This document shows, in pieces, positions 19,888 through 22,349 of a stretch of DNA of 54,276 nucleotides; the stretch's first letter is position 1, and each line of letters opens with the position of its first letter. The notes beneath the pieces were generated by a model. It worked only from the letters and a program-made list of their open reading frames with translations. It ran no database searches and had not been told where the DNA came from. The position numbers were made by a program, and so were the translations under genes. Source of the stretch: an uncultured Pseudomonadota bacterium (GTDB lineage: Bacteria > Pseudomonadota > Gammaproteobacteria > UBA6186 > Azoamicaceae); contig CADEGZ010000001.1 in the NCBI GenBank assembly GCA_902827015.1, positions 1 through 54,276 on the forward strand, read 5' to 3'.

Positions 19888-21112
19888 TTTCCAATTTCAT
19901 TAAAGCTCTATTAAATAACATAGTTAATCCAATCACTAAACATAGTAGAGCATAAATAACTACCAATACTTGTGTAGGTACTAAATTAAGTAATATACCT
20001 GATAACGTCATTGCAATTGGACCTGCAGAAACTGAGATAAAATTAACATAAGTCATCATATCTGGAATGTCGCTATCGGCGACATATTTTTGATAAAAGT
20101 TAAGAGTCGCTATATTACCAATTGCTAAGAAAAAACCTAATAAGAAAAGAGCACCCAATGAAATTAAACTTACTTCAGAATAAGCAAAAAGTAAATAGGC
20201 TAGTCCAGCTAATACGTATGGCAAAACAATCTTACGCCACGGTTTTGTTTGTAGTGGGTATATTGATAACATAAACCCTCCTATTAATAACCCAGCACCC
20301 AAACTTATCTCAAAAGACGATAGCAATACTATGCTACCTTGATAAAGATCTTTTGCAATTATTGGCATAAAAATTTGTAGTGGGATTAAAAAAATATTTG
20401 TTAAAAAAAATGTTAATAATAAATGTGTGATAAGGCGATATCTGTTTAATAACTTAAATGGGTGTAATATAAGTTCTTGTAATTTTCTTGACTCGAATAA
20501 ATAGGCATTATTTTCTAATTTAATAAAACACTGAGCAAACCATGCCAACATATAGGTAATTCCGGTAATAAATAATAAACCTTCCATTTTTACTAAGGCA
20601 TAAACAGGTATAGCAATAGCAGGTCCTATTAACCTTGCAGTTGAGTCACAACTATTTAGCATTGCAATGACTCTGTCAGAATTTTTTAAACTCATTTGTC
20701 TAGGTATTGTTAGCAACGCGGGATTAAATAAAGCAGTAGCACAATTAGCCAGGAATGTTCCTATTGTTAGAAAAAATAAGATAAATTGACTATCAGAAAA
20801 CAAAAATACTGCAATTAAACTCAGGTATATTATTCCGCGAGCAAATTCTGAGTATAAAATAGTAGTGAAAGGAGACCACCTCTTAATTAATTGGCCAGAA
20901 AAAAATACCAAAAACAAGTGAGGCAACATGCTAATAGCAAAGAACCAAGCAAGAGAATATTTATCATAGTGTTCTGTGATATACCAGGACGTACCAACCA
21001 GCCAAAGCCTATCACTAATTTTTGAAAATAATTGTGCAAAAATTAGTATGCTAATGTTAAGGTACGGTTTTCGATTATTATTACTTAGAGTAGATGTAAT
21101 TTCATTTAACAT
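19880..21112 (-). CDS. MFS transporter (EntS/MFS_3-like putative exporter)
   Basis: 410 aa, about 12 hydrophobic helices, no soluble domain. The N-terminal region (..FAQLFSKISDRLWLVGTSWYI..MLPHLFLVFFSGQLIKRW) resembles siderophore/peptide-exporter MFS proteins. It is translationally coupled to both neighbours. Confidence 0.6.
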   Translation of the reverse strand: MLNEITSTLSNNNRKPYLNISILIFAQLFSKISDRLWLVGTSWYITEHYDKYSLAWFFAISMLPHLFLVFFSGQLIKRWSPFTTILYSEFARGIIYLSLIAVFLFSDSQFILFFLTIGTFLANCATALFNPALLTIPRQMSLKNSDRVIAMLNSCDSTARLIGPAIAIPVYALVKMEGLLFITGITYMLAWFAQCFIKLENNAYLFESRKLQELILHPFKLLNRYRLITHLLLTFFLTNIFLIPLQIFMPIIAKDLYQGSIVLLSSFEISLGAGLLIGGFMLSIYPLQTKPWRKIVLPYVLAGLAYLLFAYSEVSLISLGALFLLGFFLAIGNIATLNFYQKYVADSDIPDMMTYVNFISVSAGPIAMTLSGILLNLVPTQVLVVIYALLCLVIGLTMLFNRALMKLEND

Positions 21113-22349
21113 GGTGTTTGACTAATAGAGGTAATAATTCGGTAATAAATCCAGGAACAATTTTCCCATTATGAACATCAAAAGTACTAACGTATGGATT
21201 AGAGGAATTAGTTGCTAGTGAAATGACCAATTTATAGCGAATAAAATACATAACTATTGACGTATATCCTGGCTGTAGCCCGTCGTGTGAAATAACATAA
21301 CCATATGTTGGCATAAAATGTAGAGCAACCCCTAACCCGTATGACGCTTTATTATGAATAGCATTAGGGATTGCATCTAACATTGTAAAAATTGATTGAG
21401 TTGAAAGTAACTCCCCTTCAAAAAGAATACGGTACCAATTAGCTAAATCTCGTGGTGTAGATATTAGACTTGAGAATATATTATAGGTATCCCGGACTTC
21501 AAATGCTTCAATATTGTTATTACCAGGAATATGTAGGACAGGATTTTGACTAAATGCTAACTTAAGATCATTTTTACTGTTAATGGGTAAGTAGCCTATA
21601 GCTAGTTTTTTTAGTGCAAGGGATGGGATTATTCCTCGTTTAGGAAAATAAGTATTAGATAAATTCACCTTTTTTAATAATAAACGAATCTGATCAACAA
21701 TAGTTTTACCAGTTATAGATTGAATAGCCATACTTAGTAAAATATAGTCTGTATTGGTATAACTCCATTTTCCAAGCGCTCCTGGTTTGAAATAAATTGG
21801 ATGTTGCATGGCTAATTCTAAAAGTTGTCTATCATCCCAATATTGGTTACGATTTTTAATGAAAGCTTGTTTAAACTTAATTGTATTAATTGCCTCTGGA
21901 ACTCCACTTGTGTGATTCAGAAGCTGCTTTATTGTCATTATCCCCAATACCGGGTATTTTTCGACAAAAGAAGCTAAGTCGCTATTATCAGATTTATATC
22001 TTGCTGTTATACTCTTTAAGGTTTCATTCAATTGAATCTTATTCTGCTCAATAAGTTGTAAAATAATTGTTGCTATAAGGGATTTTGTTATACTACCACA
22101 TAAGAATAGCGTGTCATTTACCATTGGGTTTTGTTCAGTAAGATTTTTATAACCTACCGCTACAGTCGTAAGTGGATTATCATGAAAACCATAACTAAGG
22201 ACCACACCGGGAACATTATAATAATGGATGAGTTCATTTAATTTTTGTGCAATTTGCTGCTTATTATTAAATAATTCTGTGGCTTCTGCAATCGAAAGAC
22301 TAAGCACCATAACAAGAACACAGCATTTTGTAAAAAATTTAGATACCAT
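21102..22349 (-). CDS. Secreted serine hydrolase of the class C beta-lactamase / DD-peptidase / D-aminopeptidase fold (MEROPS S12-like)
   Basis: S-x-x-K (GSITKS, Ser86/Lys89), Y-x-N (WSYTNTDY) and H-x-G (SHDGLQPGY) occur in the canonical order. An N-terminal signal-peptide-like segment is present. Confidence 0.8.
   Translation of the reverse strand: MVSKFFTKCCVLVMVLSLSIAEATELFNNKQQIAQKLNELIHYYNVPGVVLSYGFHDNPLTTVAVGYKNLTEQNPMVNDTLFLCGSITKSLIATIILQLIEQNKIQLNETLKSITARYKSDNSDLASFVEKYPVLGIMTIKQLLNHTSGVPEAINTIKFKQAFIKNRNQYWDDRQLLELAMQHPIYFKPGALGKWSYTNTDYILLSMAIQSITGKTIVDQIRLLLKKVNLSNTYFPKRGIIPSLALKKLAIGYLPINSKNDLKLAFSQNPVLHIPGNNNIEAFEVRDTYNIFSSLISTPRDLANWYRILFEGELLSTQSIFTMLDAIPNAIHNKASYGLGVALHFMPTYGYVISHDGLQPGYTSIVMYFIRYKLVISLATNSSNPYVSTFDVHNGKIVPGFITELLPLLVKHHVK
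22281..22349 (-). other. Probable Sec signal peptide of the S12 hydrolase
   Basis: MVSKFFTKCCVLVMVLSLSIAEA has a basic n-region, a hydrophobic core and a small-x-small site (SIA/E or AEA/T). Confidence 0.6.

Follow-up and report, generated by a model that had tools for sequence, protein, structure and literature searches.

A predicted periplasmic S12 hydrolase of the D-peptidase branch is a core gene of a nonribosomal peptide cluster family in AT-rich uncultured Gram-negative bacteria

D-peptidases of the S12 serine hydrolase family that are encoded in peptide biosynthetic gene clusters are known in two forms, the membrane-anchored activator of the ClbP type and the resistance peptidase of the BogQ/TriF type from Firmicutes. 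BogQ and TriF, both cluster-encoded, are reported to confer self-resistance by cleaving on the C-terminal side of D-residues (PMC8127968; PMC9541196), and cleavage of a product by S12 peptidases after its export has precedent (PMC9889268; PMC8127968; PMC12903863). A further penicillin-binding protein (PBP)-type group, the SurE family, is defined by a lipocalin-like domain of eight β-strands at the C-terminus (PMC11735501). Here, we describe an S12 gene on a stretch of 54,276 nucleotides (nt), hereafter the window, from an uncultured Pseudomonadota bacterium (assembly GCA_902827015.1, contig CADEGZ010000001.1, positions 1 to 54,276). The gene (21102..22349, minus strand) encodes a PF00144 protein of 415 residues, S12 below, and is a core gene of a nonribosomal peptide synthetase (NRPS) cluster family in AT-rich uncultured Gram-negative bacteria, where it is always paired with a major facilitator superfamily (MFS) gene, usually in overlapping frames. 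An original prediction made from the sequence of the window had offered two precedents for S12, release and cyclisation of the peptide as by SurE, or prodrug cleavage as by ClbP and XcnG. The closest known class, which that prediction overlooked, consists of S12 peptidases that are secreted and D-stereospecific (alkaline D-peptidase, dHy1, and the BogQ type).

Pfam, translation, and an alignment of 28 family members bear out the S12-fold protein that had been read at this position. PF00144 (Beta-lactamase) covers residues 35-385 of 415 (E=1e-34), and the motifs SITK (22094-22083), YTN (21761-21753), and HDG (21287-21279) contain residues that are invariant across all 28 members (S86, K89, Y197, N199, H355, and G357). 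The N-terminus, MVSKFFTKCCVLVMVLSLSIAE, consists of two Lys, a 12-residue hydrophobic core, and small residues at -3 and -1, and is signal-peptide-like over residues 1-22 (nt 22349-22284). A basic stretch and a hydrophobic core recur at the N-terminus of 27 of the 28 members; the export call is based on this composition and on its conservation across the family. Beyond the signal-like stretch, hydrophobicity analysis of the 415-residue protein found no hydrophobic segment other than the buried SxxK helix. An AlphaFold (AF2) model with a predicted local distance difference test score (pLDDT) of 91.5 shows one PBP domain followed by a single C-terminal helix (401-413). As judged from these features, S12 is most likely a Sec-exported, soluble enzyme with intact catalytic residues that belongs to the D-stereospecific peptidase/DD-peptidase branch. 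Its location should be the periplasm, because the cluster encodes a resistance-nodulation-division (RND) pump, which is a mark of a Gram-negative envelope, and because the export signal is family-wide.

The gene begins with ATG, preceded at 5 nt by a ribosome-binding-like site (AAGGGA) and farther upstream by a 433-nt gap. Its stop overlaps the start of the MFS exporter gene (19880..21112, minus strand) by 11 nt, and the stop of the latter overlaps by 8 nt a type II thioesterase (TEII) gene (19099..19887, minus strand). The exporter is an MFS_1/DHA3-like protein with a PF05977 match, similar to Mef and EntS. Promoter and terminator scans of the AT-rich window DNA (31.5% G+C) performed no better than scans of shuffled sequence, and NCBIfam offered no equivalog for S12, TEII, or the TauD-family hydroxylase of the cluster.

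Among solved structures, the top relative is the alkaline D-peptidase of Bacillus cereus (4y7p), with E values of 1e-31 for the single sequence and 1e-47 for the family profile. Other leading sequence matches are dHy1 (9s7k, a D-stereospecific hydrolase), the D-amidohydrolase 3wwx, and the R61 DD-peptidase. A Foldseek search with the AF2 model gave an order that agrees with the sequence search: 4y7p, 9s7k, 3wwx, R61, and 2dns lead both lists, the leaders are all D-specific, and the characterised near relatives all attack the carbonyl of a D-residue. Identity to solved structures is 23-25%. S12 shares with alkaline D-peptidase and dHy1 the features of a D-stereospecific S12 peptidase, namely a signal peptide or signal-like stretch, a single S12 domain, SxxK and YxN motifs, and no membrane anchor. 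It differs from the secreted D-peptidases in that its Gram-negative host makes it presumably periplasmic rather than extracellular, and in that the whole cluster family keeps its gene in an S12-MFS(-TEII) operon. Close relatives are few: in a set of 5.8 billion proteins, no more than 33 clusters exceed 200 bits, with a sharp drop in score thereafter, and a family-alignment scan of genome contigs gave, among the matches listed, identities of at most 32% (Actinobacteria, Bacillus, and cyanobacteria).

The strength of the R61 match (E=2e-30 with the family profile, and high on the fold list) raises the possibility of a cell-wall role, in which S12 would be a low-molecular-weight DD-peptidase/PBP or a β-lactamase-like copy serving as a resistant or decoy target. 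R61 is, like S12, a soluble exported S12 enzyme; JGI labels relatives of S12 as D-alanyl-D-alanine carboxypeptidase, and chromosomal paralogues together with cluster-embedded copies form the pattern of target-duplication resistance. However, the cluster contains no recognisable β-lactam-forming chemistry, the predicted tail of its peptide is D-L-D and no mimic of D-Ala-D-Ala, and class C β-lactamase matches to S12 are weak and confined to the N-terminal part. R61 also differs from S12 in its third motif, which is H-T-G with Thr in the middle, whereas S12 and its relatives carry Asp or Asn there; nor does the predicted cluster peptide have a D-D terminus. We regard a cell-wall role as having a low probability.

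The fold also includes esterases, which appear among the weaker matches of S12 (EstB-type, Est-Y29, and IS11). A periplasmic EstB-like or siderophore-esterase-like enzyme, with an ester instead of an amide as its substrate, might open a (depsi)peptide ring or linearise an iron-loaded chelator, and several features of the cluster (a TauD-family and a CmlA-like hydroxylase, modules for Ser and for Asp/Asn-like residues, and an MFS protein with an EntS-like match) are common in β-hydroxy-Asp siderophore systems. Such a function is nevertheless unlikely: the D-peptidases outscore the esterase relatives by a wide margin, the window carries neither a TonB-dependent receptor nor another iron-uptake gene, and lactone formation is not expected of a type II thioesterase.

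Ten genomic contexts of S12 homologues were read, comprising seven NRPS clusters (the window, L001, L087, L088, L094, L095, and L096) and three contexts outside clusters (L002, L003/L004, and L086). In seven of the ten, the S12-MFS pair and a TauD gene stand beside NRPS or thioesterase (TE) genes, and a terminal protein with condensation (C), adenylation (A), thiolation (T), and epimerisation (E) domains, C-A-T-E, is seen in five of the seven clusters. L001 encodes an NRPS ending in A-T-E-C-A(Ser)-T, a C-A(Ser)-T-E protein, and then S12-MFS-TEII-TauD; in L087, an NRPS and a C-A(Ser)-T-E protein are followed by TauD-CmlA-S12-MFS-MFS. The order in L094 and L095 is NRPS, C-A-T-E, and TauD-S12-MFS-TEII, with an RND pump thereafter in L095. 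L088, which shows the end of an NRPS (A(Ser)-T-E), and L096 share a protein composed of a degenerate C/E-like domain and a TE domain (L088:3410-5371 and L096:2-706) directly upstream of TauD-S12-MFS. This protein reads HRMYVD in place of HHxxxDG, and its TE motif is GYSFG. TauD lies directly upstream of S12 in L088, L094, L095, and L096; a CmlA-like gene intervenes in L087, and in L001 TauD is placed downstream of TEII. The best 120 matches to the 2651-residue NRPS of the window (N3, below) were dominated by long unrelated NRPSs, with no true orthologues among them, and an exact-pattern walk along the L094 contig in metagenome contigs found nothing.

The distribution of thioesterases across these clusters bears directly on product release. 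The TEII of the window had been noted before, and is indeed a discrete PF00975 protein of about 250 residues (E=1e-36) with a GxSxG motif (GHSMG) and a C-terminal His; its best PDB matches (6vap, TesA, RifR, RedJ, SrfD, YbtT, and 5ugz, which we take to be ClbQ) are type II thioesterases. TEII orthologues are present in the window, L001, L094, and L095, that is, in the visible parts of four of the five clusters without a TE domain, and none is visible in the L088 and L096 loci, the only clusters with the C-like+TE protein. Because the two occur in complementary clusters, the pattern points to an α/β-hydrolase TE as the simplest candidate release catalyst. S12 would then not be the off-loading enzyme, since S12 and the MFS gene are kept even where a TE domain is present. 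The statement that release was unexplained by the visible genes was thus too strong.

The SurE-like precedent, in which S12 would act as a PBP-type thioesterase that releases and perhaps cyclises the peptide via its D-configured last residue, fares poorly against this background and is very unlikely. Like SurE, Ulm16, and PenA, S12 is a stand-alone PBP-fold enzyme encoded beside NRPSs that end in T-E without a cis TE, and a D-residue is predicted to come last. A relationship to SurE can be detected (E=8e-20 with the profile; Foldseek rank 14), the SxxK, YxN, and HxG catalytic motifs are present, and L087 is without a TE downstream. However, the sequence match is limited to the N-terminal half and the TM-score normalised to SurE is 0.58. 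The lipocalin-like domain is absent, PF00144 ending at residue 385 and the model with one helix. The export signal of 27 of the 28 members would put the enzyme away from a cytoplasmic thioester. Moreover, the TauD-S12-MFS block adjoins the TE-domain protein in L088 and L096, and close S12 homologues also occur outside any NRPS cluster. The original prediction had itself taken the signal-like N-terminus as an argument against this role, and it is now joined by domain architecture, location, nearer matches to D-peptidases, and TE co-occurrence.

The second precedent, removal of an N-acyl-D-Asn leader by a prodrug peptidase of the ClbP/XcnG type, was assessed with clbP of Escherichia coli CFT073 as reference, in which E92, S95, K98, Y186, S188, K235, H257, N331, and W466 fit the published numbering (PMC9889268). 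Prodrug-activating peptidases keep N331 strictly, have Ser or Thr at position 188 (where S12 enzymes at large have Asn), and show high conservation of E92 (PMC9889268). Several points speak for such a role: the S12 domain is predicted to be exported to the periplasm, an Asn-code A domain is followed by an E domain, the cluster includes multidrug and toxin extrusion (MATE) pumps, and Q359 offers an amide side chain at the N331 position. Nevertheless, ClbP S188 corresponds to N199, the invariant Asn that is the general S12 state; N331 corresponds to Q359 in the window and to S, T, E, Q, or G across relatives; and E92 and K235 are replaced by L83 and L249. Identity to ClbP is 21%, and ClbP (E=4e-12) aligns with the N-terminal half only and first appears at rank 33 of the Foldseek list. 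The three-helix transmembrane domain is missing, S12 ending about 90 residues before it in the alignment.

The two clusters were also compared. The D-Asn module of the window is internal, preceded by two or more modules and by a docking head, and not a starter, and the C domain that opens this module (N3-C1, LCL-like) is the C domain least similar to the starter C domain of ClbN. Two MATE genes are present, whose products did not match ClbM in BLASTP at E<=1e-3, and the exporter coupled to S12 is an MFS protein. In the clb island (L093, E. coli CFT073 2265084-2267313), clbP is followed by the overlapping type II TE gene clbQ; the window has the same pairing of peptidase and TEII, but with the MFS gene between them. 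ClbP resembles S12 in its adjoining type II TE gene and in the D-Asn-forming module of its cluster, and differs in its partner exporter (ClbM rather than MFS) and in acting on an N-acyl starter rather than an internal D-Asn. Membership of the ClbP type has an exceedingly small probability. The missing transmembrane helices had already been held against a strict ClbP orthologue, an argument that the D-Asn-binding residues and the position of the D-Asn module reinforce. On this evidence, S12 is rejected both as a member of the ClbP family and as a SurE-type cyclase. What stands of the second precedent is an exported, probably D-specific S12 hydrolase that would act after export or in resistance.

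The substrate can be approached through the assembly line. All genes of the window except the NRPS at 1-14088 lie on the minus strand, and the minus-strand line extends past the right window end (54276). The longest contig on record for the S12 protein also measures 54276 bp, so that the window appears to be an entire contig. N2 (50435..54276), cut by that end, reads ...A-T-C-A(Cys, DLYNLSLIWK)-T, so that at least two modules precede the D-Asn module, and its gene overlaps by 4 nt that of N3 (42483..50438; 2651 residues), which consists of a docking head, C, A, T, E, C (DCL-like), A, and T. Stachelhaus codes were read from A domains aligned to a GrsA fragment, a numbering that reproduces the known code of GrsA itself. 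This independent extraction gave for the first N3 module (48824-47349) exactly the Asn code previously read by hand, DLTKIGEVAK, followed by the E domain (47051-45765); the second module (DITKVGEVGK) is Asn-like too. The N3 E domain has variant motifs, HHLIIDA and, instead of E(G/S/A)HGR, DSHGRE, and its activity is argued only from the C domain that comes next, which is DCL-like. N4 (37768..42486) comprises a docking head, C, A(Val, DAFWLGGTFK), T, and E (39087-37771), and N5 (26073..30764) a β-hairpin docking head, C, A(Ser, DVWHFSLVDK), T, and E (27389-26076). Both terminate at the last residues of their own E domains. The TE-domain query matched the plus-strand NRPS only and none of the minus-strand NRPSs, in agreement with the earlier observation that both candidate terminal proteins end in T-E without a TE or R domain. 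The terminal E domains of L001, L087, and L095 have NHLIxDG, in which Asn takes the place of the first His.

N5 is the orthologue of the terminal protein in the sister clusters, which have a single such protein; in the window, TauD, MATE, and the RND pump lie between N4 and N5. The C, T, and E domains of N4 and N5 are 63-68% identical and their docking heads near-identical, with 41% identity between their A domains. This comparison suggests that N4 and N5 may be alternative terminal modules fed by N3, which would give two products. A sequential order from N4 to N5 is disfavoured: the C domains of N3-C1, N4, and N5 are closer to the in-window domains that follow T (LCL) than to those that follow E (DCL), the docking heads are near-identical, and N4 lacks a docking tail. 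The predicted tail of the peptide is given as two variants, ...Cys-D-Asn-Asn-D-Val or ...Cys-D-Asn-Asn-D-Ser.

Taken with the observed fold, catalytic residues, export signal, nearest relatives, conserved synteny, and TE distribution, this prediction leads us to favour, tentatively and at somewhat less than an even chance, a role for S12 as a post-export processing enzyme that would follow a ClbP-like logic outside the ClbP family and would not off-load the peptide. The substrate, the cleavage site, and the order of steps in the following scheme are what we infer. TEII, presumably transcribed together with S12 and acting in trans for release as well as editing, would first hydrolyse the peptide (...Cys-D-Asn-Asn-D-Ser or -D-Val) off the terminal T domain, a step that may fall to the discrete C-like+TE protein in L088 and L096. 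The MFS protein, a drug/H+ antiporter-type transporter, would then move the peptide across the inner membrane, where periplasmic S12 would form an acyl-enzyme on a D-residue carbonyl and hydrolyse the bond. Cleavage would occur after D-Asn, because this is the sole D-residue of the linear product with a peptide bond downstream, and might activate the product. Finally, the processed product would exit via the RND and MATE pumps. Points for maturation are that S12 lies among tailoring genes, that the layout of exporter, periplasmic enzyme, and RND pump is like those of colibactin and pyoverdine, and that clbP, too, lies with a type II TE gene, which it overlaps. ClbP, XcnG, ZmaM, and AmiB likewise have a periplasmic S12 domain that acts after a dedicated inner-membrane exporter. 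In pyoverdine maturation, export by PvdE is followed by deacylation by PvdQ and secretion by PvdRT-OpmQ, a succession of inner-membrane exporter, periplasmic hydrolase, and tripartite pump to which MFS, S12, and RND would correspond. No sequence relationship is involved, PvdQ being an N-terminal nucleophile (Ntn) hydrolase and its exporter an ATP-binding cassette (ABC) transporter.

Several points weigh against a processing role. Cleavage after D-Asn would free a mere dipeptide, which would be odd either as product or as leader. Type II thioesterases are usually editing rather than release enzymes, and the visible part of L087, which covers 8 kb downstream, contains no TE of any kind. The sister-cluster contigs end 0.4-1 kb before the A domain of the upstream E-containing module; the D-Asn reading comes from the window. 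In a neighbour-joining tree, moreover, S12 copies from clusters and from non-cluster contexts intermix, as suits an enzyme of general use more than a maturase dedicated to one product.

The mixed tree is also what would be expected of a resistance gene useful to non-producers, and self-protection is a possible, though less likely, alternative. With unchanged chemistry and location, S12 would here serve for resistance, as a D-stereospecific peptidase like BogQ, and would break down product that lingers in the periplasm or comes back into it, with S12 and MFS forming a resistance cassette. Its architecture, a signal peptide and an S12 domain only, and its nearest relatives match secreted D-peptidases, and BogQ and TriF provide cluster-encoded precedent; likened by description only, they share with S12 a gene placed in a cluster for a peptide that contains D-residues (PMC8127968). 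Outside clusters, close homologues adjoin MarR and another β-lactamase-fold gene (L003/L004) or GNAT acetyltransferases (L002). Conversely, it would be wasteful to degrade an exported product in the very compartment that it must cross, and in every cluster S12 stands among tailoring genes (TauD, CmlA-like).

A more specific version of processing, which we consider quite improbable, would make S12 a transpeptidase-like periplasmic maturase. An internal D-X-L-Y bond of the exported linear peptide would serve as an energy-neutral acyl donor, by analogy with the use of D-Ala-D-Ala by DD-transpeptidases, and the conserved L-Asx/Ser-D-Ser dipeptide at the C-terminus would be expelled as a follower. 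Water could resolve the acyl-enzyme, in which case a pro-sequence would be lost from the C-terminus; alternatively, one of the peptide's own amines could do so, which would amount to cyclisation without ATP beyond the cytoplasm. On this view, the ...A-T-E-C-A-T / C-A-T-E tail that all sister clusters conserve would specify a group for recognition and leaving, and the final product would not contain it.

The remaining minus-strand genes of the cluster include the two hydroxylases, a TauD-family iron/2-oxoglutarate enzyme (36851..37762) and a CmlA-like diiron β-hydroxylase (17337..18929; CmlA_N plus a metallo-β-lactamase fold). A gene for pterin-4a-carbinolamine dehydratase (16925-17407, minus strand) adjoins the CmlA-like gene, the open reading frames overlapping by 71 nt; its TTG start is perhaps over-called, and the window shows no hydroxylase of the pterin-dependent kind. 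The RND pump comprises AcrB (30963-33980) and a membrane-fusion protein (33962-34888), and represents a possible step of export from the periplasm to the outside. The presence of MATE transporters was read correctly from the start, and there are two such genes. One (34998..36758) encodes a protein of 586 residues. The other (22783..25536) encodes a 917-residue fusion of a Cys-peptidase-like domain of the CE clan (Ulp1/SENP, OtDUB, and RickCE-like; nt 25536-24367), with invariant H110, D131, Q169, and C175, to a complete MATE protein. MATE proteins normally have their N-termini in the cytoplasm, which would place the peptidase-like domain there as well. The layout recalls C39-peptidase ABC exporters. 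As a release or processing enzyme, the fusion was rejected: it was not found in the six sister clusters, and its N-terminal part has only three homologues among 5.8 billion proteins, all of them stand-alone proteins of 540-650 residues in insertion sequence (IS)-, Fic-, or effector-like neighbourhoods.

The plus-strand NRPS (1..14088) is a separate, convergent three-module line, A-T-E-C-A-T-C-A-T-E-TE, with a formyltransferase-like start, and holds the only cis TE of the window (13336-14085). It passes the left window end inside the formyltransferase-like domain, for which Formyl_trans_N-type motifs lie in frame 1 of nt 1-165 and Formyl_trans_C covers residues 76-169. A shortened C-like segment without HHxxxDG precedes the first A domain, and the codes read DMKEIGEIGK (unassigned), DLYDFSLIWK (Cys-like), and DASTIAAVGK (Tyr-like). 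With its own formyltransferase-like start and only a C-like stub before its first A domain, this protein was rejected as the missing terminal TE protein of the minus-strand line. Two tandem sodium:dicarboxylate symporter (SDF) genes (14078-16682, minus strand) border the cluster, and the first of them shares 11 nt at its end with the 3' end of this convergent NRPS gene.

Beside the two known forms of cluster-encoded S12 D-peptidase, the window and its sister clusters thus present a third arrangement, a soluble S12 enzyme, predicted to be periplasmic, that is tied to an MFS gene at the core of an uncharacterised NRPS cluster family whose contigs also bear effector-like genes. A PBP-fold gene beside an NRPS that ends in T-E is accordingly not automatically a SurE-type cyclase. 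If S12 processes the product, the true natural product would differ from the assembly-line prediction, and both structure prediction and heterologous expression would have to take in S12 and its exporter. If it is instead a resistance enzyme, it would constitute a ready-made D-peptide-degrading determinant in Gram-negative bacteria.

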